NCBI GenBank assembly: GCA_963674965.2
Contig: CAXXFL010000006.1
Span: forward strand, 64,001-128,000
Reading direction: 5' to 3'
Length of the DNA stretch: 64,000 bases
Origin: a bacterium
GTDB taxonomy: Bacteria; RBG-13-61-14; DATKZS01
Below are positions 49,232 through 64,000 of this stretch, in pieces. The position numbers were made by a program, and so were the translations under genes. Within the stretch, counting starts at the first letter, position 1. The number at the start of each line of letters is the position of its first letter. The notes below the pieces were generated by a model. That model was not told the DNA's origin and did no database searches. It saw only the letters and a list, made by a program, of their open reading frames with translations.

Positions 49232-50272
49232 ATGACCGAGGCAACGATAAGCGGAAAGGACCGGCTCTGGCCCACTCTCAAGCGGATACTTTTTCCCCAG
49301 TGGGTGAGGAACAGGCGGGTCAAGCACACGAAGGCGGGCTACGTTTTCGTTCTTCTCATGGTGGCGGTGGCGGGCGCTTCCTTCAACACGGGCAACAATC
49401 TTCTTTACATACTGCTCTCCGTCATGCTCTCGGGACTTTTCGCCTCCTTCTTGATATCGGAGTATATAATAATCTCGCTCGAAATCGAGAGGGACGCCCC
49501 CGAGGTCGTGACCGAGCGGACCCCTTTTCGCGTGACCTACTCGGTGAAAAACAAGAAAAAGGTCATGCCCACCATGGCCCTGGCCATCGAGGAAAAGCTG
49601 GGCACGCTGGATATTATGTCGCTCGTGTCCTTCGCCGGTCCCGGGACGGTGGTTAAGGCCAAGGCCCCGGCCATGACCGGCAAGAGGGGCCGGGTGAAGT
49701 TCGAGGACACCATAATAAGGACCACCGCCCCCTTCGGCTTTTTCGACAAGGCCAAGCGTGTGCCCCTTGGCGGCGAGGTGATATCTCTTCCCCGCACCGA
49801 CGAGGTGGCCGTGGACCTCGATGAAATCCAGGCCTCGGGGGAGGAAAGGCCGCGCTCGAAGCCGGGACAGGGCGACGAGCTTTTCGGGTTCCGTAGCTAC
49901 GTCAGGGGCGACCCGGTCAAGGACGTCCATTGGAAGACCTCGGCCCGCTCCGGAAAAATGATGGTCCGCCAGAGGGAGGCGGAGGAGGAAAGGAGACTTC
50001 GCCTGGTCCTGGCCGTGTCGGACTCGGGCCTGGACCCGTCCAGGGAGGAGGCGGTCAGGAAAGCGGCCTCATTGGCCTCCTCGGCCCTCGACCAGGGATG
50101 GCTGGTGAGGATTGAGCTTCCCGGAGGCAGAGGAGTGGACTTCGGAAGGGGGGGCGGACACCTCTACTCGATTTTAATGTTCCTGGCCCTGTTCGACGAC
50201 CCAAAGTCCCGAGAGGGGACCCAGCTTGCCCCCACTGACGTCGAAAGCGTGGCCATTGGAAACGCCGGATGA
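49232..50272 (+). CDS. DUF58 domain membrane protein
   Basis: A..NTGNNLLY, T.APFG.F, FR.Y..GDP.K..HWK.SAR. Confidence 0.88.
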   Translation: MTEATISGKDRLWPTLKRILFPQWVRNRRVKHTKAGYVFVLLMVAVAGASFNTGNNLLYILLSVMLSGLFASFLISEYIIISLEIERDAPEVVTERTPFRVTYSVKNKKKVMPTMALAIEEKLGTLDIMSLVSFAGPGTVVKAKAPAMTGKRGRVKFEDTIIRTTAPFGFFDKAKRVPLGGEVISLPRTDEVAVDLDEIQASGEERPRSKPGQGDELFGFRSYVRGDPVKDVHWKTSARSGKMMVRQREAEEERRLRLVLAVSDSGLDPSREEAVRKAASLASSALDQGWLVRIELPGGRGVDFGRGGGHLYSILMFLALFDDPKSREGTQLAPTDVESVAIGNAG

Positions 50273-51389: not shown

Positions 51390-52184
51390 TTGCTTGGCCA
51401 TAAAGGGAAACATCGCTATTCTTTACCGCTTCTTACTTTCTTCGCGGCCATTTTGTTTTCAAGCCCGGCTTCATGGGCGGATGGCCCGGAGAAGCTGACG
51501 GTTTACGCCGCGGCTTCCACCACCAACGCCATGACCGAGGTGGCGAAGCTTTACGAGAAGAAAACCGGGACCCAGGTGGCCTTGTCCTTTGCCTCCTCCT
51601 CGACCCTGGCCAAGCAGATCGAGATGGGAGCGCCGGCCCAGGTTTATCTTTCGGCCAATCCCGAGTGGATGGATTATCTCGAACAAAAGGGACTGATCGA
51701 GCCCGGTGGCCGCGCCGACGTGCTGGGAAACCGCATCGCCCTCATCGCTCCCGCGGATAGCGCGATCGAGGAAGTCAAGATCGAAAAGGGATTCGACCTG
51801 GCCAAAATCCTCGGGGACGGCTACCTGGCCATGGGCGATCCCGACCACGTGCCCGCGGGCATGTACGGCAAGGCGGCCCTCCAGGGCCTTGGCGCCTGGG
51901 AGGCGGTCGAGAAGAAAGTCGCCCGGGCCAAGGACGTGCGGGCGGCCCTGGCTTTGGTGGAAAGGGGCGAGTCCCCTCTCGGCCTCGTTTATACCACCGA
52001 CGCGGCCATCTCGGAAAAGGTCAAGGTGGTGGGATTGTTTCCCGAGGACTCCCATCCACCCATCGTCTACCCCGTCGCCATCGTGAAGGGCGCCGACCTC
52101 AAGGCCTCCATGCCCTTTATTGATTTCCTCAAGACGCCCGAGGCTTCGGCCTTGTTCACGAAATACGGCTTTATCGTCCGTTAA
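51390..52184 (+). CDS. modA: Molybdate ABC transporter substrate-binding protein
   Basis: AAAS, SFASSS.LA.QI..GAPA, P..VPAG.Y, VY.TDA; TTG start after GGAGG. Confidence 0.93.
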   Translation: MLGHKGKHRYSLPLLTFFAAILFSSPASWADGPEKLTVYAAASTTNAMTEVAKLYEKKTGTQVALSFASSSTLAKQIEMGAPAQVYLSANPEWMDYLEQKGLIEPGGRADVLGNRIALIAPADSAIEEVKIEKGFDLAKILGDGYLAMGDPDHVPAGMYGKAALQGLGAWEAVEKKVARAKDVRAALALVERGESPLGLVYTTDAAISEKVKVVGLFPEDSHPPIVYPVAIVKGADLKASMPFIDFLKTPEASALFTKYGFIVR

Positions 52185-52882
52185 TGGATTACCTTCGTTT
52201 CAGTCCCGCCGAGCTGGAGGCGCTGAGGCTCAGCTTCAAGGTCGCGAGCGTGGCCGTGATCTCCAGCCTCCCTTTCGGCGTCCTCTCGGCCTGGATAATT
52301 TCCCGGATGACCTTTCCCGGCAAGGCCGTGCTGAACGGGATCATCCACCTTCCCCTGGTCCTGCCGCCCGTGGTCACGGGATACGTTCTTCTGGTCCTCC
52401 TTGGCAGGAAGGGCGCCATCGGGGCGTTCCTGTACGATAAGCTCGGCCTGAGCTTCGCCTTCGACTGGAAAGGGGCAGCCCTGGCCGCGGCGGTCATGTC
52501 TTTTCCCCTCATGGTCCGATCGATACGGCTTTCCTTCGAGGCCCAGGACCGGGGACTTGAAAAGGCCGCCCGCACCCTGGGCGCGGGCCCGGTCAGGGTC
52601 TTCTTTACCGTCACCCTCCCCCTTATCACGCCGGGTATCATAACCGGCCTTATCCTTGCCTTCGCCCGGGGCCTGGGGGAGTTCGGGGCCACCATTACCC
52701 TGGTGTCCAACGTCGAGGGCGAAACCCGCACCCTGCCGCTGGCCCTGTATACTCTTATCCAGACCCCGGGAGGCGAGGACGGCGCCATGCGGCTGTGCCT
52801 GCTGGCGGTCATTCTTTCCATGGCCGCCCTGGCCGCGTCCGAGATCATCACCCATCGCTTCCTTTCCCGGATGGAGGGCTGA
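52184..52882 (+). CDS. modB: Molybdate ABC transporter permease
   Basis: LPLVLPPVVTGY, AARTLGA, FAR.LGEFGAT. Confidence 0.95.
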   Translation: MDYLRFSPAELEALRLSFKVASVAVISSLPFGVLSAWIISRMTFPGKAVLNGIIHLPLVLPPVVTGYVLLVLLGRKGAIGAFLYDKLGLSFAFDWKGAALAAAVMSFPLMVRSIRLSFEAQDRGLEKAARTLGAGPVRVFFTVTLPLITPGIITGLILAFARGLGEFGATITLVSNVEGETRTLPLALYTLIQTPGGEDGAMRLCLLAVILSMAALAASEIITHRFLSRMEG

Positions 52883-52885
52883 GCC

Positions 52886-53608
52886 GTGATCGAGGCCAGG
52901 TTAAAAAAGCGGCTCGGAAGCCTCGAGATCGACGCGTCCTTCTCGAGGCCCGGCCCGGGCGTCACGGCGCTCTTCGGCCGGTCGGGCGCGGGAAAAACCT
53001 CGATCGTCAACATGATCGCGGGCGTCCTCCGTCCCGACGCCGGCCGCGTTATCGTGAACGACAAGACCTTGTTCGACTCGGAGCGAAGGATCGACGTTCC
53101 TCCCGAGAAACGGAGAATAGGGTACGTGTTCCAGGACGGCCGCCTCTTCCCCCACGCGTCGGTCGAGAAAAACCTCACTTACGGCATGAAGCTGACGCCG
53201 GCCGGACTAAGGTACGTCGATCTTGGACAGATCGTCGCCCTCCTGGACCTGGGGCATCTCCTCGCCAGGAGGCCGGGCAAGCTCTCGGGCGGAGAGAAGC
53301 AAAGGGTCGCCATCGGCAGGGCCCTCCTCACCAGCCCCCGCCTGCTCCTGATGGACGAGCCACTCGCCTCGCTCGACGCGGCCCGCAAGGAGGAAGTCCT
53401 CCCCTTCATCGCCAGGATTTGCCGAGAGTTCGAAATTCCCATCATCTACGTCAGCCACATGATCGACGAGGTATCAAGACTCGCCGACAAGACCGTCGTC
53501 ATCCATAACGGCAAAGTGGATATTGAAGCCTCGCGCCGAATAGCCGGGAAAGACGGCCCGACGTCCGACTCCGATAAAACGGACGGGTCGCGTGAGAGGG
53601 TATGCTGA
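52886..53608 (+). CDS. modC: Molybdate ABC transporter ATP-binding protein (no TOBE domain)
   Basis: GRSGAGKT, GYVFQD.RLFPH, LSGGEKQRVAIGRALL, MDEPLA.LD. Confidence 0.93.
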   Translation: MIEARLKKRLGSLEIDASFSRPGPGVTALFGRSGAGKTSIVNMIAGVLRPDAGRVIVNDKTLFDSERRIDVPPEKRRIGYVFQDGRLFPHASVEKNLTYGMKLTPAGLRYVDLGQIVALLDLGHLLARRPGKLSGGEKQRVAIGRALLTSPRLLLMDEPLASLDAARKEEVLPFIARICREFEIPIIYVSHMIDEVSRLADKTVVIHNGKVDIEASRRIAGKDGPTSDSDKTDGSRERVC

Positions 53609-53725
53609 TAACCGACGTCGTCCAGCGTCACGAAACGGGCTTGATTGCGGCAAGGTGGGTCCCTCGCCCCAAAGCTCCACGGCGCCATTACCGGCATCCA
53701 TAAACGTGATAACCGCTTAAAGTAC

Positions 53726-54415
53726 TTATTGGAGGTTTTCCAGGTTCAACAGGTTTGGCTTGATGGCGGAACGGGACCAATGTTCCCCTACCGACTGAAT
53801 AAACGCGGGACGAACCAGTTTAGCCCTTTGTTCGAGCCACTTGTCCTTGTCGAATCGAAGATATATCCCCTCCGCGGGCTGATCTGACAGCTTTGATTGT
53901 TGTAAGAGATTTTTAAGCTCAGGGATATTAAAACGACCGCGCGCGATAGTGGGTACTCGAGAGATTCCCATTTTAATTAATAGGCCGTCGCGACGATCGG
54001 ATGAAAAGAACCTTCCAGATTGCTTGTCATAGATATCGAAACCAAGGAACCAGTCCGGCAGCCGATTGTAAAACACCGAGTGCCGGGCGTAACACCATTC
54101 TCCAAAGAGAATGAATCGGTCGGAAAGATGCTCGAAAAGCGCGTCCGTCCGGAGTTCGAGCCATTCCCCAAGCTTCTTCCATTGGCCCGAACCCGGCAGG
54201 CGCAAATACTCGCCTCTATTATACGCCAGAAGACTGGCTTCCGAATCGAAGGATATCCCCAAATTTGCGCCGTCAACCTTCTCCTCGACAATAAGATCGC
54301 GTCGGAGGAAATCATCGCGCTCGGACTCGGACAGTACCTTATCGCCCCTGATATCGACTCCAGCCAACGTGGCCAGATGAGGCGTTGACGGGTATTTTAC
54401 GAAATCCTCGTTCAT
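53726..54415 (-). CDS. ATP-dependent RNA ligase family protein (stand-alone nucleotidyltransferase domain)
   Basis: KYP.TPHL, EEKVDGAN (motif I), LFGEW, FDIYD, EGIYLR, RAKLVR. Confidence 0.88.
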   Translation of the reverse strand: MNEDFVKYPSTPHLATLAGVDIRGDKVLSESERDDFLRRDLIVEEKVDGANLGISFDSEASLLAYNRGEYLRLPGSGQWKKLGEWLELRTDALFEHLSDRFILFGEWCYARHSVFYNRLPDWFLGFDIYDKQSGRFFSSDRRDGLLIKMGISRVPTIARGRFNIPELKNLLQQSKLSDQPAEGIYLRFDKDKWLEQRAKLVRPAFIQSVGEHWSRSAIKPNLLNLENLQ

Positions 54416-54942
54416 GTCCCAATCTTCTTCTTAAATTTCTCTTCTGCATATTTAGGGCAGAGAAAATTAACGGTGATCCCTACTTGCTCTAAAGCGTCTT
54501 TCCATCCACACCATTTACTGTCCGTTGCCTGCAAGATGGGAGGTTTTTCATCGTGGGCGTTGGCAACGGCGACAAACTTCCGATCCGATATATCGAAATT
54601 AGCCAGTCCTTTATGGATTGGAAATTCCACGTATGAGTTTCCCCTTTTCGTGATGGTGACGCGATCGCAAACGCGAGAATCATAGCGATTGTCGTGCACC
54701 CATTTCAGGAAGCTGTCACCCACGCCGGGCTGTACACTCATGGAAAGCTGCCCTCGATATTCATCGAAAATTTCATCGCCGGCGTCAATTATCAATCCAC
54801 GCGTTTCAATGACGTGCTCGACGGCTTCAATACAGGAAAGGACGCAAGAGTAGGGAACGTCTGAGTCCGGGTCCGGTTGAGTGGCAAGGTTGGCCGTTTT
54901 TGGAACGTTCGTGTCCACGATACATTTCTTAGGCAATCTCAT
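54412..54942 (-). CDS. PIN-like domain protein (putative ribonuclease)
   Basis: N-terminal IVDTNV, central EIFDEY, C-terminal SDRKFVAVA and ATDSK: acidic spacing typical of PIN folds. Confidence 0.6.
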   Translation of the reverse strand: MRLPKKCIVDTNVPKTANLATQPDPDSDVPYSCVLSCIEAVEHVIETRGLIIDAGDEIFDEYRGQLSMSVQPGVGDSFLKWVHDNRYDSRVCDRVTITKRGNSYVEFPIHKGLANFDISDRKFVAVANAHDEKPPILQATDSKWCGWKDALEQVGITVNFLCPKYAEEKFKKKIGT

Positions 54943-56348
54943 TCGGATGCCTCCGCATTTTCCGAACTCGTCCGCATCCTCTTTTTCGTCGCCGCTTTAG
55001 CGTGTTCGATGACGTCGTTCATTTCATCACCGAAAAAGTTCTCCGGCCAGTTCAGGACGTTGCCGAACATGTCAATTTCAAGCGGTTCCAACGTGGCAGG
55101 GTATCTGGAAATATTGGCAAAATAAGCGGATACGTTTTCTTTTGAGACAGCCTCCTCGGCAATGCGCCTTTGCAAGCGCCTCAGAAAATGTTCCGAATGG
55201 GTCTCGATGATTAACTGTATGTTTCTATCCGCTCCTTTTACTCTTGAGTTAATAACGTCGATCATCACGTCGGCCAGCGCGGACTGCGCGCTTGGGTGTA
55301 GATGTATCTCGGGTTGTTCCATGAGAATGATCGACCCGGGCGGCGCGTAGAAGCACTGCACTAAAACCGGCAGCACCTGAGATATACCGAAACCGACGTC
55401 CGGCAGGTCAACCAAGTCTTCTGAACCCTTGGTGCGAACCTTGACCTCGTATTCCTGCCTTTGCTCGGAAATCGATTTTACTTCAAAGTCATCGATCAGA
55501 CCCATTTCTTTTAACTTGATAGCAATAATTTCTCCGAAAAGTTTTGCATGTTTTCCGAAACTATGGGTGAGTTTTCGACCACGCGCCGCGAGGATTGTGG
55601 CAACGGTATTCTCTCCCGCATAGCCGACGCTTTCGGGAGCGATGCCCGTCCATGAATACAAACGCTCGGCTTTTGTGCGAAGAGGCCCAAGATAGCAAAG
55701 GGACCCGAATAATTTTTCATGCCTCAAATTCAGTTCCTGAACAAAATCCGCGTTTTGATGGTAAGCAACAACTTCGTCAGGGAAACCATAAAACCGAACG
55801 GGAGCTTCCGGCATTAATGCTCGTCCTACCTTGCGTTTGAGCTTGTATTTGTCAGCGAAAACTTCGTACCCAGACTTTCTGTCCGATTTAAGTTTCATGC
55901 CAATGGAAAGTATGCGTTTATCTTTATTCATCAAATCATATTTGAGATTATCTAGCGCGAGAGTGTGCTGATCTTTAGCACTGGATCCTACTTCCGCATG
56001 AAAGATTAAATTGTCACCGGAATAGTTGCGATTATTATTGATACGGTCTTTGAATTCCAATGATTCCGGCAGTTCCCATTTATATTCGAAGATAATTTTT
56101 CTTTTCGGGTTCCGGTGAAAGACCATTTCCTGGTAGGATCCGAGCTGAACGGCGGAGTTTCTTCCGCCTGGATAGAAAACCGCTTTCCTGTCGGGGGACT
56201 CGACGGTCTGTTTCAGCATCATCAGGAACTGGCCGATACTCGATTTTCCCGAACTGTTGGCGCCGAAGAACAGGGTAATCGGAGCCATGCGGATTTCTCC
56301 GGTGTCCTCCCAGCCCTTGAAGTTTTGTATTCGCAATTTCTTAAGCAT
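54939..56348 (-). CDS. ABC/AAA_15-21-type ATPase with DUF3696-like C-terminus
   Basis: L.IQNFK, GANSSGKS, DVGFGISQVLP, EQPEIHLHP.AQ, IETHSEH, NWP.NFF. Confidence 0.9.
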   Translation of the reverse strand: MLKKLRIQNFKGWEDTGEIRMAPITLFFGANSSGKSSIGQFLMMLKQTVESPDRKAVFYPGGRNSAVQLGSYQEMVFHRNPKRKIIFEYKWELPESLEFKDRINNNRNYSGDNLIFHAEVGSSAKDQHTLALDNLKYDLMNKDKRILSIGMKLKSDRKSGYEVFADKYKLKRKVGRALMPEAPVRFYGFPDEVVAYHQNADFVQELNLRHEKLFGSLCYLGPLRTKAERLYSWTGIAPESVGYAGENTVATILAARGRKLTHSFGKHAKLFGEIIAIKLKEMGLIDDFEVKSISEQRQEYEVKVRTKGSEDLVDLPDVGFGISQVLPVLVQCFYAPPGSIILMEQPEIHLHPSAQSALADVMIDVINSRVKGADRNIQLIIETHSEHFLRRLQRRIAEEAVSKENVSAYFANISRYPATLEPLEIDMFGNVLNWPENFFGDEMNDVIEHAKAATKKRMRTSSENAEASE

Positions 56349-56770
56349 TTTCTTCTTCTCCCGTTATTATCAAGGCTGAACTGGTCCGCTCTTTCGAACA
56401 CCGAGCGCTTTCCCTTTCAAGAGCCGTGAAATTCCAAACGCCGCTTCATGTACCGTCCTCGCGACTCACGGATGATTACGGACTCCACTTTCTCCAGCTA
56501 AATAATATCACCTTGAAGTAACCTAATAAAGCGTACTCTTGTGATCAAGCTTTTCGTGAAATGATTGAGGCATTCGCATATGCAACTTCAAGTCGAGGCA
56601 TTCAATCGTCCCCAGACTTGGTAGTAAGAAGAGTCGCTCACATGATATTAAAGGCAATCTCTGAGGGGCGCCCTTGGGACGGGCCGACCCACCACATTGC
56701 CGTTCATCGGTACAGGCAAGGAGCATGGAAATGATTCATGATGGTCGCGCCGGGTATACGTGGCACGTGG

Positions 56771-56810
56771 AAAGGGACGCCCGCGGTTCCGAAAAAAACC
56801 GCGGGCGCCC
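56771..56810 (-). terminator. Probable terminator of the alcohol dehydrogenase operon
   Basis: GGG(A)CGCCCGCGGTT/AACCGCGGGCGCCC stem. Confidence 0.6.
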
Positions 56811-56844
56811 GGGGTTGTACGCGTTTTAGTCCCGGTCTCTTTGA

Positions 56845-58026
56845 TCAATAGGCCTTCTTCAAAAGCTCGAGGGCGTCCTCGTAGGTGACCTCCTCGGGGT
56901 TCATGATGATGGTGCCGTCGTTGATGGCGGTCTTGGCGATCTTCTCGAGGAGACCCTTGTCCACGCCCGCGTCCTTGAGGGTGATGGGCATGCCGGTCAT
57001 GGAGTTGAGCTTCCTGTTAAGGTCCCTTACGGCGTCGGCCACCGCCTTGGCGTCCTGCTCGGCCACTCCCGAGGAGTCCGTCACCCCCATCAGCGGCGCC
57101 AGCTCGGCGATTATGTCTCCCACTTTGCCGATATTGTACTCGATGCCATAGGGCAGGAAGATGGCGTTGGCTATGCCGTGGGGCACGTGGGCCACGCCGC
57201 CCGCGGCGTGGGCCAGGCCGTGGACAACTCCCACCAGGGAATTGGAGAAGCTGACGCCGGCCAAAAGCGCCGCGTTGGCCATGTAGAGCCGGGCCGCGGC
57301 GTCCTTGCCGTTCTCGACGCACTTTATCAGGTTGTCCATGATCAGCTTGATGGCCGTGATCGAGAAGGAGTCAGACACCGGGTTCTTCTGCAGGCAGTAA
57401 TATGCCTCGATGGAGTGGGTCAGGGCGTCCATGCCGGTGGCGGCCGTGATCTTGGGCGGCATGGTCAGGGTCATCTTGGGATCGAGCAGGGCCACGTCGG
57501 GAAGAATCTTATAGGAGGTAAAGGACATCTTGACGCCCTTCTCGACATTGGCGATGACGGCGGCGGAGGTGACCTCGGACCCGGTGCCGGCGGTGGTGGG
57601 AATGACGATAAAGGGCTCCATGTCCTTTTTCACCCGCTCGGCCCCCTGGAACTGGAGAAGGTCGTCCGTGTCCTCCGTGATCACGATGTTGACGCCCTTG
57701 GCCGTGTCGATGCTCGAGCCTCCGCCCACGGCCAGGAGGCAGTCGCAGCCCAGGTCGCGGTACATCCTGGCCACCTCGTTGCATATCTTGTCGCTCGAGT
57801 CGGGAGGCGTCTTGTCGTAGATGCCGCCTATCTCGCGGTCGGTCCCCTCAAAGACCGCCTTGACTTTCTCGATCAGGCCCGCGCCCACCACGCCCTGGTC
57901 CGTGACGATAAGGGGCTTTTTGGCCCCGAGCTGGTCAAGCTCGTGGATCAGGCAGGGCAGAGCGTCAATGCCGCTGACTATCTTGACGGGACAGAAGAAC
58001 TCGTAATAGTCGGGTACGTAAGACAT
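56845..58026 (-). CDS. Iron-containing alcohol dehydrogenase
   Basis: GGGSSID.AK, PTTAGTGSEVT, DALTH..E, H..AH, H G.AN. Confidence 0.95.
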   Translation of the reverse strand: MSYVPDYYEFFCPVKIVSGIDALPCLIHELDQLGAKKPLIVTDQGVVGAGLIEKVKAVFEGTDREIGGIYDKTPPDSSDKICNEVARMYRDLGCDCLLAVGGGSSIDTAKGVNIVITEDTDDLLQFQGAERVKKDMEPFIVIPTTAGTGSEVTSAAVIANVEKGVKMSFTSYKILPDVALLDPKMTLTMPPKITAATGMDALTHSIEAYYCLQKNPVSDSFSITAIKLIMDNLIKCVENGKDAAARLYMANAALLAGVSFSNSLVGVVHGLAHAAGGVAHVPHGIANAIFLPYGIEYNIGKVGDIIAELAPLMGVTDSSGVAEQDAKAVADAVRDLNRKLNSMTGMPITLKDAGVDKGLLEKIAKTAINDGTIIMNPEEVTYEDALELLKKAY

Positions 58027-58780: not shown

Positions 58781-59050
58781 TGGTCCCGCCGGGGCCGTCC
58801 AAGACCCTGGTTGCAGGGGCTTTGGGTACGGCCTCGGGGAGGTTTGGTCATTGCCTCGGCCATCAAAGCCACGCCTGTACGCTCGATTGAGATCATCCGG
58901 CCGATGTAGCCGACCGGAACGGCAGCGGGCTACAGGCTGGGTAAGCGCCTTCTCCGGAATTGGCTCCCGGACACCACGCTGATGGGTGGCGGACCGGCTA
59001 GGTGGGCCTCATTTGTTGCCCGGTCGAGATGGTAAACGCGGTGGGGATCA
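58781..59050 (+). ncRNA. Putative large structured non-coding RNA (family not recognised)
   Basis: Closing helix TGGTCCCGCCG/CGGTGGGGATCA encloses several nested stems; G-U pairs favour the + strand; followed by a GGCGCC hairpin and a T7 tract. Confidence 0.6.
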
Positions 59051-59195
59051 CGATAAAAGATGGCGCCCGCGGACCAGCACCCGGCGCCGGGGATTTTTTT
59101 ACCCTTTGATTTTTCCGCAAATTGCAACGGCCAATAACCTGGCCCGCCAAATCGTGATATCATGGCCCGCGATCATAAATGGGAGGACTCGAGTC

Positions 59196-60593
59196 GTGAT
59201 GCTTACGATCAACAACGCGAGACGGCCGGCCGCGGACCTTGGCTTTCTGCTTCACAAACGGCCGGGAAAGGCCCAGTCCTTTTCCCTTCCCTTCGGCGGG
59301 GCCCACGTGTTTTATCCGGAGGCGGGGGAGGACTCCTGCACGGCCGCCCTTCTTTTGGAGGTGGACCCGATCGGGCTTGTCCGTAAAACGCGGGGGACCA
59401 GGGGGGACTCTCACGCCCTGGCCCAGTACGTGAACGACCGTCCTTACGCGGCCTCGTCTTTCATGTCCGTGGCCATCTCCCGCGTGTTCGGGTCGGCGCT
59501 GAACGGCAAATGCAAGGACCGTCCCGACCTCGTTGATACTCCCCTGCCCCTTACGGCCAGGATATCGGTGCTTCCCTGCAGGGGCGGCGAGCCATTTTTG
59601 CAAAGACTCTTCGAGCCGCTGGGCTACAAGGTCGAGGCGGAGCGCCATCGCCTCGACGAGAAGTTCCCCGAATGGGGCGAGAGTCCCTATTTCACGGTCA
59701 CCCTGAGCCAGGAGGTCAGGCTCATGGACCTTCTGACCCATATCTATGTCCTCGTGCCCGTGCTCGATAATGACAAGCACTATTGGGTGACTGAGGACGA
59801 GATCGATAAACTCCTGAGGCGCGGCGAGGGTTGGCTCGATTCGCATCCGGACAAGGAGGTCATCGCCCGCAGGTATTTCAAACACCAGCGCCGCCTGGTA
59901 CGTGACTTCCTCGCCCGCTTGGTCGACGAGACGGACGACCCCGACCGGGCCCTGGAGGAGCAGGCCGGAGAGGAAAACGATATCGAGAAGAAGATCGGCC
60001 TGAAGGACCTGCGCCTGGCCGAGGTCGTCTCGGCGGTCCAGGAAAGCGGGGCCTCGAGCGTTCTTGACCTTGGCTGCGGCGAGGGCATGCTCTTGCGGGA
60101 ACTTGTCAAGATCAGGCGACTGGAGCGGATAGTGGGCATGGACGTGTCCCACCTCGCCCTCGAGAGGGCCTCGAGCCGTCTTAAGATGGACCGTATGTCG
60201 GATAAGAGTCTGCAAAGAATAAACCTCATCCAGGGGTCCCTCATGTACAGGGACAAGCGCCTGTCGGGGTTTGACGCGGCATGCGTTATCGAGGTCATCG
60301 AGCACCTGGACCCGCCCAGGCTCCGGGCCTTCGAGCGCGTGCTCTTCGAGTTCGCCCGGCCCGAAACTATAGTGATAACCACTCCCAACGTGGAGTATAA
60401 CTCGAGGTTCGAGGACCTGCCGGCGGGCAGGCTTCGCCACCGCGACCACCGTTTCGAGTGGACCAGGAAGGAATTCGAGGACTGGGCGAATGAAGTGGCC
60501 GGCCGCCATGGATACTCCGCCGGCTTCAGGCCCATAGGAGAAATCGACCCCGACCTGGGCCCGCCCACGCAAATGGGAGTTTTCCAAAAATGA
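59196..60593 (+). CDS. hen1: 3'-terminal RNA ribose 2'-O-methyltransferase Hen1
   Basis: MLTI....PA.DLGFLLHK, YVNDRPYAASS, LDN.KHYWV, LDLGCGEG, EVIEH, TPN.EYN, RH.DH.FEWTR.EF. Confidence 0.95.
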   Translation: MMLTINNARRPAADLGFLLHKRPGKAQSFSLPFGGAHVFYPEAGEDSCTAALLLEVDPIGLVRKTRGTRGDSHALAQYVNDRPYAASSFMSVAISRVFGSALNGKCKDRPDLVDTPLPLTARISVLPCRGGEPFLQRLFEPLGYKVEAERHRLDEKFPEWGESPYFTVTLSQEVRLMDLLTHIYVLVPVLDNDKHYWVTEDEIDKLLRRGEGWLDSHPDKEVIARRYFKHQRRLVRDFLARLVDETDDPDRALEEQAGEENDIEKKIGLKDLRLAEVVSAVQESGASSVLDLGCGEGMLLRELVKIRRLERIVGMDVSHLALERASSRLKMDRMSDKSLQRINLIQGSLMYRDKRLSGFDAACVIEVIEHLDPPRLRAFERVLFEFARPETIVITTPNVEYNSRFEDLPAGRLRHRDHRFEWTRKEFEDWANEVAGRHGYSAGFRPIGEIDPDLGPPTQMGVFQK

Positions 60594-63145
60594 AGCTGAC
60601 CGTTCCCGAGCTTTCCCTGGTGGTGATGATAGGGGTTTCCGGGTCGGGCAAGTCCTCTTTCGCCAGGAGGCACTTTCTGCCCACGGAGATACTTTCGTCC
60701 GACTTCTGCCGGGGCCTGGTCTCGGACGACGAGACCGACCAGACGGCGACCGACGACGCCTTCGAGCTTCTCCACTACGTCGCCTCCAAGCGACTCGCCA
60801 GGGGAAAGCTCACGGTGATCGACGCGACCAACGTGCAGACGGAGGCCAGAAAGCCGCTTGTCCAACTGGCCAGGCAATACCACTGCCTGCCCGTGGCCAT
60901 CGTCCTCGACCTTCCTGAAAAGCTGTGCCGGGAGAGGAACAGGGCAAGGCCCGACCGCGACTTCGGCTCCCACGTGACGCGCGGGCAGGCGAGGAACCTG
61001 AAGCGCTCGATCAAGGGGCTCAAGCGCGAGGGGTTCAGGCGTATCCATATCCTGGACTCCCCCGACAAGATCGAGGCGGCCGAGATAGTACGGGAGCCTC
61101 TCTGGAACGACAAGAAAGAGGAGAAGGGTCCTTTCGATATTATCGGCGACGTCCACGGCTGTCTTGACGAGCTTATCGTCCTTCTCCGCAAACTGGGATA
61201 CAAGGTCGGCGGGCGCGATGGCGAAGAGGGATGGGAGGTTTCGCATCCGGAGGGCAGGAAAGCCGTGTTCCTGGGCGACCTGGCCGATCGGGGACCGGAC
61301 GTTCCCGGCGCGTTCCGGCTGGCCATGGACATGGTGGAGTCGGGAAAGGCCTACGCCGTGCCCGGCAACCACGACGTCAAGCTCCTTAAATATCTGGACG
61401 GAAAGAACGTCCAGGTCAGGCACGGCCTTCTCGAGTCCATCGAGGGACTCGAGAAGGAAAGCGAGGAATTCAGGCGGAGGGTCGGAGAATTTATCAGGGG
61501 CCTTATCAGCCATTACGTGTTCGACGGCGGCGGGCTGGTCGTGGCCCACGCGGGCATGAAGGAGGAGCTGCAGGGACGCGGTTCCGGCCAGGTCCGGGAG
61601 TTCGCCCTGTTCGGGGAGACCACGGGCGAGACCGACGAGTTCGGCCTGCCCGTCCGCTACGACTGGGCCTCGGAGTACCGGGGCAAGGCCATGGTCGCCT
61701 ATGGGCACACGCCCGTTCCGGAGCCGGAATGGCTGAACGGGACCATCAACCTGGACACGGGTTGCGTTTTCGGCGGCAGGCTCACGGCCCTTCGCTATCC
61801 GGAGCGGGAACTGGTCTGGGTGGAAGCGGCCAGGCAATACCACGAGCCGGTGAAACCCCTCGAGCGCGGGGCTCCCGATTTTACGGCGCAGCAGGAACAC
61901 GACGACGCGCTCGATATCGATGACGTTCTAGGCAAGCGCCTGATCGAGACCCGCCTTCGTCGCGGCGTGACCGTCAAGGAGGAGAACTCCATCGCGGCCC
62001 TCGAGGCCATGACGCGGTTCGCGATCGATCCCAAGTGGCTCATTTACCTTCCCCCCACCATGTCGCCCACGGAGACCTCGACCGAGCCCGGTCTCCTCGA
62101 GCACCCCGCCCAGGCCCTGGATTACTTTCGAAAGCATAATGTAAGCCGAGTGGTCTGCGAGGAGAAGCACATGGGGTCGCGGTGCGTGGCGATCGCGTGC
62201 CGGAACGAGAAGGCCGCTCGCGAACGCTTCGGCGTCAGGGATGACGAGACAGGGGCCTTATATACCCGCACGGGCCGGAGGTTCTTCGATAATGACGAGG
62301 TCGAGCGTGAGTTCCTCGCCAGGGTGAGAAACGCGGCCGGGGCGGCGGGCGTCTGGGAGAAGCTCGAGACGGACTGGATATGCCTGGACTGCGAGCTTAT
62401 GCCCTGGTCGGCCAAGGCCCAGGAGCTTTTGCGAAGCCAGTACGCGGCGGTGGGATCGGCCTCCCGGGCGGCCCTGGCCCAGGCGATTAATGCCCTGGGC
62501 CAGGCGAAAAAAAGCGGAACCGACGTTCATGATCTTCTATCGAAATATACGAACAAGTCCCACATGGCGGACGGCTTCGTCGAGGCCTATCGCCATTATT
62601 GCTGGAACGTGGAATCCATATCCGACCTGAAGCTGGCGCCCTTTCACGTCATGGCCTCGGAGGGGGCCGTCCACGCGGACAAGGACCACCTCTGGCACAT
62701 GGAGACCATCGCCGGGATTTGCGACAAGGACGAGGAAATACTGCTTGCCACTGACTTCAAGACGGTCGAGCCGGGAGACGAGAAAAGCGAGGCTGAAGGG
62801 ACCCGCTGGTGGGAGGAACTGACGGGAAAAGGCGGCGAAGGCATGGTGATAAAGCCCCTCGACTTCGTGGCCAGGGGCGAGAGGGGCCTCATCCAGCCCG
62901 CGATCAAATGCCGGGGCCGGGAATACCTCCGCATTATTTACGGCCAGGAATATACCTTGCCCGAAAACCTCGAGCGGCTAAAGAAAAGGGGCCTCTCCAC
63001 CAAGCGTTCCCTCGCGCTCCGGGAGTTCGCCCTCGGCCTCGAGGCCCTCGAGCGCTTCGTAAGGAAAGAGCCCCTGCGCCGCGTGCACGAGTGCGCTTTC
63101 GGAGTGCTGGCCCTGGAAAGCGAGCCCGTGGACCCGAGGCTGTAA
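60590..63145 (+). CDS. pnkp: Polynucleotide kinase-phosphatase-ligase Pnkp
   Basis: Kinase G.SGSGKS, metallophosphoesterase GDVHG/GDL.DRG/GNHD, ligase EEKHMGSR, C-terminal ESEPVDPRL; ATGA overlap with hen1. Confidence 0.96.
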   Translation: MKLTVPELSLVVMIGVSGSGKSSFARRHFLPTEILSSDFCRGLVSDDETDQTATDDAFELLHYVASKRLARGKLTVIDATNVQTEARKPLVQLARQYHCLPVAIVLDLPEKLCRERNRARPDRDFGSHVTRGQARNLKRSIKGLKREGFRRIHILDSPDKIEAAEIVREPLWNDKKEEKGPFDIIGDVHGCLDELIVLLRKLGYKVGGRDGEEGWEVSHPEGRKAVFLGDLADRGPDVPGAFRLAMDMVESGKAYAVPGNHDVKLLKYLDGKNVQVRHGLLESIEGLEKESEEFRRRVGEFIRGLISHYVFDGGGLVVAHAGMKEELQGRGSGQVREFALFGETTGETDEFGLPVRYDWASEYRGKAMVAYGHTPVPEPEWLNGTINLDTGCVFGGRLTALRYPERELVWVEAARQYHEPVKPLERGAPDFTAQQEHDDALDIDDVLGKRLIETRLRRGVTVKEENSIAALEAMTRFAIDPKWLIYLPPTMSPTETSTEPGLLEHPAQALDYFRKHNVSRVVCEEKHMGSRCVAIACRNEKAARERFGVRDDETGALYTRTGRRFFDNDEVEREFLARVRNAAGAAGVWEKLETDWICLDCELMPWSAKAQELLRSQYAAVGSASRAALAQAINALGQAKKSGTDVHDLLSKYTNKSHMADGFVEAYRHYCWNVESISDLKLAPFHVMASEGAVHADKDHLWHMETIAGICDKDEEILLATDFKTVEPGDEKSEAEGTRWWEELTGKGGEGMVIKPLDFVARGERGLIQPAIKCRGREYLRIIYGQEYTLPENLERLKKRGLSTKRSLALREFALGLEALERFVRKEPLRRVHECAFGVLALESEPVDPRL

Positions 63146-63476
63146 AAACGGTCACGACTTTTATCAAGCGTCCCGTACTGAACCGCCGTGGAATGACGCG
63201 CTACCTGGATATCTTCGGACTCGGATGGCTCGCCGCATCCTACGGACATTTTGACCATTGGGGAACATTTGAGAAAGCGTCGACTTGATATTTTAACGAT
63301 CCATATCTCCTCGTCGAACTGGTATGGCCGATGGCAATTTCGAAAAGCCTCTTCCGATCCCGCATGATTGATTTATTATCGTTTGCGCGCGGATCATCTC
63401 AATGATAAGTTAGCTCACACAACGGGGAAAAAAAGGCAAACCGGATAGCAAAGCCAATATTATGGAGCATAACAAT

Positions 63477-64000
63477 ATGCAGGAAATACGTTTACCTTCC
63501 GAGGAAAGATACAAGGAAGAACTGGCTGCTCTGACCGCGAATGATGACGGGCCCCGTCCGGCCCGGTGGCAGCTTTCCCCCCGCGCGGTCGAGACTTTCA
63601 TCATGGGCGCGGACAAGCCCGTCATGCACGATAAAAAGAAAGTCGAAATCACCCCCAAGTATTACGGTGACAAAAGCCTGGTCCAGGTGGCGATCGCCAC
63701 CCTGGCCTCGGATCGCGCCCTGCTCCTGGCGGGCGAGCCGGGCACGGCCAAGTCCTGGCTTTCGGAACATCTGGCCGCGGCCATATCGGGAGCCAGCCAG
63801 CCGGTGATACAAGGCACCGCCGGGACCACCGAGGACCAGATCAAGTACGGCTGGAACTACGCCATGCTCCTGGCGGAGGGACCCAGCGAGAAGTCCCTTG
63901 TCAAAAGCCCCATCTACCTGGCCATGGAACAAGGCCGGGTCGCGCGGTTCGAGGAAATCACCCGCTCGGCCTCCGAGGTGCAGGACGCGCTTATCTCGAT
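63477..64000 (+). CDS. MoxR/YehL-like AAA+ ATPase, runs off the window
   Basis: Manual translation MQEIRLPSEERYKEELAAL...W.LSPRAV..FI.G...ATLASDRALLLAGEPGTAKSWLSEHLAAAISG...QGTAGTTED..KYGWNYA.LLAEGP...RFEEITR. Confidence 0.9.
   Translation, partial: MQEIRLPSEERYKEELAALTANDDGPRPARWQLSPRAVETFIMGADKPVMHDKKKVEITPKYYGDKSLVQVAIATLASDRALLLAGEPGTAKSWLSEHLAAAISGASQPVIQGTAGTTEDQIKYGWNYAMLLAEGPSEKSLVKSPIYLAMEQGRVARFEEITRSASEVQDALIS

Follow-up and report, generated by a model that had tools for sequence, protein, structure and literature searches.

A minus-strand ATPase–PIN–RNA ligase operon, very probably a HEC-03-family defence cassette, with a ligase that may reseal cut RNA

We analysed a stretch of 64,000 nucleotides from a bacterial genome (GenBank assembly GCA_963674965.2, contig CAXXFL010000006.1, positions 64,001 to 128,000 of the forward strand; hereafter the window), focusing on an operon of three minus-strand genes encoding an ABC-type ATPase, a VapC-like PIN-domain protein and a stand-alone ATP-dependent RNA ligase domain. 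The locus is very probably a defence cassette of the HEC-03 family with a dedicated ligase. Overall we favour, on balance, the explanation that the cassette is anti-phage and horizontally acquired and that its ligase reseals cuts made by the PIN protein; resealing as the ligase's job, taken on its own, is put forward tentatively. The three genes are:

54939-56348, minus strand: ABC-type ATPase gene with a C-terminal DUF3696 tail, the presumed sensor or gate (open reading frame (ORF) of 469 amino acids)
54412-54942, minus strand: VapC-like PIN-domain nuclease gene, the presumed effector (ORF of 176 amino acids)
53726-54415, minus strand: stand-alone ATP-dependent RNA ligase nucleotidyltransferase domain gene, a conserved accessory (ORF of 229 amino acids)

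An earlier, sequence-only reading of this DNA had described three minus-strand genes joined by ATGA overlaps, and its coordinates and both junctions proved exact (54942-54939 between ATPase and PIN, 54415-54412 between PIN and ligase, on the minus strand). The ATPase matched the Pfam families AAA_15 (7.6e-26), AAA_21 (3.8e-20) and, over residues 402-446, DUF3696 (6.3e-9), which bears out its proposed identity as a sensor-type ABC ATPase. Among PADLOC models it matched PDLC04148 'HEC-03B' (1.1e-126, 421.6 bits, residues 1-461 on profile positions 1-456 of 458), followed by NsnB (7.8e-59) and PDC-M55A (3.2e-56) and, more weakly, by the AriA, GajA and PtuA models. The PIN protein matched PDLC04147 'HEC-03A' (1.6e-29, residues 7-167 on profile positions 3-156 of 159). 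In the description by Payne, Hughes, Fineran and Jackson (bioRxiv 10.1101/2024.01.29.577857), an ABC ATPase and a VapC-like PIN protein make up HEC-03 (Hma-embedded candidate 03), which is found within other defence operons. According to the preprint, HEC-03 guarded E. coli from at least two phages, with protection measured in orders of magnitude; neither gene could be omitted, and because of toxicity the strain was grown without isopropyl β-D-1-thiogalactopyranoside (IPTG). The two gene names are swapped between sources: in PADLOC-DB v2.0.0 HEC-03A is the PIN protein and HEC-03B the ATPase, while in the preprint HEC-03A is the ATPase and HEC-03B the PIN protein. The view that the architecture belongs to no named system therefore has to be given up for the ATPase-PIN pair, which PADLOC files as HEC-03 and which has been tested in E. 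coli.

Residues G29, N31, S32, G34, K35 and S37 of the ATPase, read as Walker A, were invariant in 22 of 22 aligned relatives, as were E344, Q345, P346, E347, H349 and H351. The Walker B place reads M-E-Q-P-E (residues 344-347 being E-Q-P-E; window 55307-55318, minus strand), and these four residues are also invariant in the two-gene forms described below.

The middle protein matched no Pfam family, only 1 of 19 members of its family matched PIN_3, weakly (E 0.045), and a phmmer search against PDB sequences returned nothing. An AlphaFold model built on 19 relatives (predicted local distance difference test, pLDDT, 92.8; predicted template modelling score, pTM, 0.88) was compared by VIA-align with 48,161 chains, yielding nine matches at Z >= 8, eight of them VapC or other toxin chains of toxin-antitoxin systems. 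The best of these was 4chg_A (Z 9.1, root-mean-square deviation (rmsd) 3.5, 125 aligned residues), and the VapC toxin matches (Z 9.1-8.1) spanned residues 4-165 of the model. Foldseek returned mostly PIN proteins, weakly, with a best E of 0.012 and none at 1e-3. Acidic residues D53, E61, D120 and D141 were invariant across 19 sequences and D10 nearly so. According to a review of the superfamily, one active-site acidic residue each comes behind strands 1, 2 and 4, and the remaining one opens helix 4. In our model D10 lies just behind strand 7-9, D53 closes strand 50-53, D120 is at the start of helix 118-129 and D141 lies behind strand 136-138, and by this rule, which positions residues by secondary structure and not by superposition, the acidic residues appear to occupy all four canonical places. 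Judged by its predicted structure, the middle protein is a VapC-like PIN fold, in agreement with the sequence-only reading, which had named a fold search as the check.

The third protein matched the Pfam RNA_ligase family PF09414 (2.3e-31, 109.6 bits with a cut-off of 27, residues 40-200 on profile positions 2-170 of 171). Its structural model (pLDDT 83.4) gave 62 PDB matches at <= 1e-3 in Foldseek, led by 2vug_A (3.5e-8). In VIA-align it was closest to the nucleotidyltransferase domains of the nick-sealing ligases NgrRnl (6vt9, Z 15.6, rmsd 3.0, 183 aligned) and T4 Rnl2 (2hvr_A, Z 15.1), followed by MthRnl, REL1 and T4 Rnl1; RNA ligases spanned Z 15.6-13.3 and DNA ligases reached at most 11.5. 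Ten residues (K46, D48, G49, N51, R67, E106, D127, E182, G183 and K199) were invariant in 17 sequences, and K46-V-D48-G49-A-N51 (KxDGxN, with the motif I lysine) aligned with EEKVDGYN of a Palaeococcus ligase, the motif numbering being our own reading. The nearest solved relatives by sequence are Pab1020-type ligases, with the EEKVDG motif in common. The protein falls outside the Rnl3/TIGR01209 (Pab1020-type) family, scoring 19.3 bits against a cut-off of 136.9, and at 229 amino acids it is shorter than those solved relatives (370-402 amino acids), of which only the central part aligns. It consists of the catalytic domain alone, without the set of N-terminal, dimerisation and C-terminal domains that marks that family. 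By motif and modelled fold it is a stand-alone ATP-dependent RNA ligase domain that looks intact and is predicted to join 3'-OH and 5'-phosphate ends, and the ligase assignment of the sequence-only reading is thus upheld. Phage records carried only distant ligases, with at most 30.9% identity among the matches listed (15 of 197 records). Prediction of complexes among ATPase, PIN and ligase gave no answer with the ligase as partner (score 0.00) and speaks neither way.

To follow the ligase across genomes we utilized a PIN-seeded scan with one genome per species, which gave 31 loci (numbered with the prefix L), and searched these with the three window proteins by tblastn. An ATPase match was present in 30 of the 31, and a ligase lay directly behind the PIN gene in 22, or 22 of the 29 assessable, the contigs at L016 and L029 ending too early for the ligase to be judged. 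Among the 22, the ligase was split in L010 and cut by the contig end in L011 and L018. Six of the 31 loci had no ligase despite downstream DNA (L014, L015, L025, L027, L028 and L031), and L003 retained a 32-amino-acid ligase remnant behind an intact ATPase-PIN pair. Intact pairs without a ligase were therefore found at L003 (remnant), L015 and L025, and the PIN genes at the contig-cut loci L014 and L042 also had none. The PIN acidic residues were unchanged in L015 and L025, and no PF09414 gene was found elsewhere in the genome of L025, the completeness of which is not stated. At 19 of the 23 loci that have a ligase match, 4 bases are shared between the PIN stop and a ligase start codon; because the genes overlap, PIN and ligase are probably translated together.

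An even set of 401 genomes from the phylum of genome G041 gave 13 genomes with the PIN model, six with a ligase, six without and one ending too early, while a reverse search with the ligase found eight genomes with seven strong matches. Six of these seven were trios already found through the PIN gene, and the seventh (G265) was preceded by a divergent PIN (2e-7) and an ATPase (2.1e-71), making 14 loci in total (seven with ligase, six without, one not assessable) and placing 7 of 7 strong ligases in trios. A second sample of 401 genomes, from the phylum of genome G042, had ligase matches in 17 genomes. Ten showed 41-69% identity over near-full length, and all ten lay behind matches to the PIN and ATPase profiles; of the other seven, five belong to a longer subfamily, one is a fragment and one is a distant ligase. 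Close ligase homologues from the two samples thus stood in trios in 17 of 17 cases, and within the genomes sampled the ligase subfamily occurs only behind ATPase-PIN pairs. Conservation of the ligase beside the pair, on which the sequence-only reading depended, is accordingly borne out by the survey. All three proteins are strongly conserved across phyla (62-79% identity). As far as gene content indicates, the ligase is a conserved accessory, dispensable and not an obligate antitoxin, because intact ATPase-PIN pairs without it exist.

We also observed the trio on a conjugative plasmid of Aeromonas salmonicida, beside AbiEii and Hok genes, and on a Tistrella plasmid; its three genes bear no annotation there beyond DUF3696/AAA ATPase, hypothetical protein and, for the third, RNA ligase family protein. 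An HD + AAA_33 protein or an 'AAA family ATPase' was the partner of more distant PF09414 ligases (28-41% identity). They include L076 (2129-3436) and L078 (205-1467), both among those other seven matches of the second sample, where the ligase adjoins an HD + AAA_33 protein, and L061 on a P. aeruginosa plasmid. By our own reading these represent a different ligase cassette with a putative end-healing-type partner.

A quick maximum-likelihood tree of 32 ATPases separated the loci by gene content. Split or partial matches and two duplicates were left out (L010, L014, L016, L026, L027, L029, L031, L037, L042, L043, L046, L040 and L044). One clade of 26 rows (support 99) held 23 ligase-bearing loci, two without (L015 and L025) and L003 with its remnant, and the other, of six rows (support 99), held two-gene loci only. 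The two-gene relatives are about 40% identical to the window ATPase and PIN. The tree scrambles taxonomy, the Methanolobus copy standing beside Syntrophobacteraceae. The cassette is single-copy in the window's genome, where the PIN model matches one place, and we found it in none of 40 relatives and in none of the phylum's 12 other genomes. Its GC content is 0.44-0.54 (500-base windows starting 53500-56500), whereas the flanks (52000-53249 and 56750-57749) have 0.60-0.66. At the DNA level, similarity to other loci ends at 56372 and 53735, at the edges of the three genes and at most 24 bases upstream of the ATPase ATG. Composition, single copy, absence in relatives and similarity ending at gene edges are indirect indications that this is a small mobile cassette acquired horizontally. 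The same four observations speak for the sequence-only description of the genes as inserted; synteny does not show it, as an empty insertion site was not found, three family-level relatives keeping the orf177-ADH (alcohol dehydrogenase) pair without modC within 1.5 kb. Several related copies look decayed, with a split ATPase match (L016, L029 and L043), an internal stop (L020), a PIN cut at residue 48 (L031) or no ATPase match (L026). At L010 the ATPase N-terminus has been lost beside transposase genes, and it is here that the ligase is split.

We scanned the nearest ORFs at 22 related loci, 116 proteins in all. Restriction or defence-type neighbours were present at 14 of the 22, which supports the association with defence genes for which the sequence-only reading had proposed a synteny survey; the other eight had housekeeping or uninformative neighbours, like the window. 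The neighbours included type I restriction-modification (L001 and L030) and AEP-TOTE (L004 and L025) and, elsewhere, AIPR and AAA_21 + DUF4276. In BREX-like rows the cassette has a large DNA methylase on one side and, on the other, an SNF2 helicase with PglZ after it (L002, L019, L020 and L021; also L014 and L024). L019 belongs to an archaeon, Methanolobus psychrotolerans, and has the AAA_21 + DUF4276 pair just upstream of the cassette. An HNH_2 gene stands beside the trio in L052 and L013. A conserved ORF of 99 amino acids, outside any Pfam family, runs up to the ATPase start in L003 (4311-4610), L017 (4299-4598) and L021 (4305-4604), with 63-81% mutual identity, and is absent from the window and the other loci searched; it may be a fourth gene of a sub-branch.

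The sequence-only reading had also placed the operon, as a more AT-rich segment, between modC and an alcohol dehydrogenase, and both the composition given above and the neighbouring genes confirm this. On one flank lies an ABC_tran protein (modC, 52886-53608, 1.5e-29) after modA/modB-like ORFs, and on the other an iron alcohol dehydrogenase (Fe-ADH, 56845-58026, 2.1e-45 and 6.9e-52). The non-coding parts of the locus are:

56349-56844, minus strand: intergenic region upstream of the ATPase gene, with an AT-rich part at about 56349-56650
53609-53725, no strand assigned: spacer of 117 bases between the ligase stop and the convergent modC stop

GC content upstream of the ATPase is 0.48-0.49 (windows starting 56000 and 56250). 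Promoter and terminator scans of the region gave chance-level results, with nothing promoter-like in 56349-56844 and nothing terminator-like in 53609-53725, and scans around the cassette returned no Rfam match and no tRNA. The cassette has no flanking direct repeats of note, and a hairpin at 56775-56810 is part of the ADH gene end. A complete Hen1-Pnkp RNA repair operon of host-like GC content lies 2.6 kb from the cassette (window 58986-63145, plus strand), in which the Hen1 gene (Hen1_L 5.3e-113 and a methyltransferase) overlaps that of Pnkp (AAA_33 kinase, Metallophos, PNKP_ligase 1e-182). A functional tie between it and the cassette was considered and rejected because the neighbourhood does not recur, Hen1_L or PNKP_ligase being present in 0 of the 116 neighbour proteins at the 22 related loci. 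A DUF58 protein (49232-50272) and the start of a MoxR-type AAA_5 ATPase (63462-63998), at the ends of the stretch examined, are unrelated to the cassette.

Taken together, these data suggest a mechanism in which the ATPase would keep the PIN protein silent through its DUF3696 tail until a phage cue freed or activated it, whereupon RNA would be cut and translation would stall. In PIN-like nucleases, according to the superfamily review, metal ions assist a 3'-O leaving group, and PIN cuts are therefore expected to leave 3'-OH and 5'-phosphate ends. Such ends would be sealable without healing, as the sequence-only reading had supposed, and the absence from the trio of an HD + AAA_33 end-healing-type partner fits directly ligatable ends. 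The ligase, needing no such partner, would then seal nicks whose ends are kept in place by the structure of host RNAs such as tRNA or rRNA, limiting the damage done by leak and allowing the cell to recover. It would in this way serve as an accessory 'reset', and not as an obligate antitoxin, since intact ATPase-PIN pairs without it exist. A bolder extension, which is possible and which we regard as doubtful, is that the ligase makes an otherwise suicidal ribonuclease-based defence reversible. The PIN protein would nick structured host tRNA or rRNA, the ATPase would re-gate it and the ligase would reseal the splinted nicks, while phage transcripts cut in unstructured stretches would stay cut; the infected cell would survive, self and non-self being told apart by RNA structure.

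Several points weigh against resealing and defence as the roles of this locus. As far as identity indicates, the HEC-03 system that was tested lies in the distant two-gene branch, at about 40% identity, and the defence function of the ligase-bearing branch is extrapolated for this reason. Literature searches returned no report of activity, target RNA or phage phenotype for any ligase-bearing trio. The window copy itself is flanked by housekeeping genes with no defence island around it. Repair appears not to be needed for viability, because intact pairs without a ligase exist. By our reading of the alignment, the Walker B place of the ATPase carries E-Q where D-E is usual in ABC ATPases. An E-Q-like state slows hydrolysis in other ABC ATPases. 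The deviation is invariant in all 22 relatives, and the 'ATPase' may therefore act as an ATP-bound switch. The ligase consists of the nucleotidyltransferase domain alone, while T4 Rnl2 needs its C-terminal domain for one step of nick sealing, and by that analogy the window protein may need a partner or do something else.

The best-surviving alternative, itself unlikely, is that the ligase is a co-effector that circularises, mis-joins or 5'-adenylylates the cut RNA ends, or acts on phage nucleic acid, making the damage irreversible or blocking phage repair. The closest solved structures by sequence belong to the Pab1020-type family, members of which one source names 'ATP-dependent RNA circularization protein'; the ligase is without an extra nick-recognition domain, and a conserved target that does not change would fit the strong cross-phylum identity of the three proteins. 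However, the top structural matches are the nick-sealing enzymes NgrRnl and T4 Rnl2, the pair alone defends in the HEC-03 relative tested by Payne et al., and nothing in the sequence suggests a substrate other than RNA 3'-OH and 5'-phosphate ends. It is quite improbable that the cassette is not an immune system here, being either a selfish or stress-response RNA cut-and-repair module or the carrier of a hitch-hiking repair ligase directed, like Pnkp/Hen1, against foreign ribotoxins. The window copy and eight of the 22 related loci are without defence neighbours, the genome retains its separate Hen1-Pnkp operon, and some loci are decaying (split ATPase at L010, L016, L029 and L043, truncated PIN at L031). 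Against this, restriction or defence genes are neighbours of the cassette at 14 of the 22 loci, in several cases as methylase-helicase-PglZ operons that contain it, the pair family has been validated against phages (10.1101/2024.01.29.577857), and the nearness to Pnkp/Hen1 is not recurrent. Equally improbable is a true enzymatic antitoxin, in which the PIN protein would be constitutively toxic and the cell would survive by constant rejoining, as in an addiction or abortive module. Expression of PIN and ligase is coupled by the order of the genes and by their conserved 4-base overlap, the pair accompanies every close member of the ligase subfamily in the genomes sampled, induction of two-gene HEC-03 was toxic according to the same preprint, and a nuclease-neutralising RNA ligase has been proposed for PIN-ligase-ATPase-HNH operons (cited in PMC5499597), but the pairs at L003, L015 and L025 are intact without a ligase, the ligase is missing too in L014 and L042, the PIN acidic residues of L015 and L025 are unchanged with no second PF09414 gene found for L025, and a whole two-gene clade does without one. 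A strict antitoxin role, one of the two that the sequence-only reading had offered, is rejected on the ground of the intact ligase-less pairs, and the accessory 'reset' is the role we prefer.

Most nuclease-based anti-phage systems are thought to act by irreversible damage or cell suicide. A widespread defence cassette with its own RNA ligase (7 of 401 and 10 of 401 genomes in the two samples, plasmids and one archaeal copy) offers a direct route to asking whether immunity in bacteria can be turned off and the harm it has done reversed. The survey narrows that question to a ligase subfamily which occurs only in trios, whose gene overlaps the PIN gene and which can be lost without loss of the pair. 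The window copy is an ordinary member of this trio family.

Full-text literature searches returned no description of an ATPase-PIN-ligase trio, Burroughs and Aravind 2016, Krishnan et al. 2020 and the supplements of Payne et al. lying outside those searches, so that it cannot be claimed that the trio has not been described. The pair is already named and tested as HEC-03. Nor do we call the trio new, because PMC5499597, in the passage available, cites a 2016 proposal of a 'conflict system' of PIN_3, an ATP-grasp ligase, an ATPase and also HNH in which an RNA ligase neutralises the nuclease, and because HNH_2 stands beside the trio in L052 and L013. The Burroughs and Aravind system (NAR 44:8525), as cited there, is likewise an operon of PIN nuclease, ATPase and RNA ligase; the comparison is with that citing sentence and the window PIN scores below the Pfam PIN_3 level, so that identity of the two systems is not established.

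The closest likeness is to HEC-03. The window ATPase and PIN match both PADLOC models over their full length and are adjacent and co-oriented with a 4-base overlap, and related loci are often embedded in other defence operons, as the preprint describes. HEC-03 differs in having two genes, with 'ligase' and 'repair' occurring 0 times in the preprint, whereas the branch to which the window belongs carries the third. Menshen (NsnABC; Nucleic Acids Res 2025, PMC12065111) has in NsnB an ATPase with 'EN' at the Walker B place, and its AlphaFold 3 models dock a PIN-like domain on the DUF3696 tail of NsnB. The window ATPase is NsnB-like (AAA_15 and DUF3696 with a deviant Walker B) and its partner has a PIN-type domain. 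However, the window has no NsnA (ParB/DUF262) gene, its flanks being modC and Fe-ADH, and Menshen has no ligase. The PIN-like domains of NsnC are without acidic residues and are fused to a separate nuclease domain, whereas the window PIN is a stand-alone protein of 176 amino acids that has kept them.

The Pnkp/Hen1, Pnkp1-Rnl-Hen1 (PMC4411300) and RtcAB systems share with the role proposed for the trio ligase the mending of ribonuclease damage by an ATP-dependent RNA ligase. In these RNA repair operons the ligase is joined by an end-healing kinase/phosphatase and by a methylase, and a nuclease gene is absent, whereas the trio ligase is without an end-healing partner and is linked to a nuclease of the same cassette. 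The window PIN fold is nearest to the VapC toxins of VapBC modules, yet there is no small DNA-binding VapB gene upstream, a 469-amino-acid ABC ATPase standing there instead, and the window PIN has about 45 extra residues. PARIS (AriA/AriB), Septu (PtuA/PtuB), Gabija (GajA), OLD and the anticodon nucleases PrrC/RloC likewise pair a sensor-type ABC ATPase with a nuclease effector. The tRNA cuts made by PrrC are reversed by Pnkp and Rnl1 of phage T4. The effectors of those pairs are Toprim, HNH or HEPN in contrast to PIN here, and in the window it is the defence operon, not a phage, that supplies the ligase gene.

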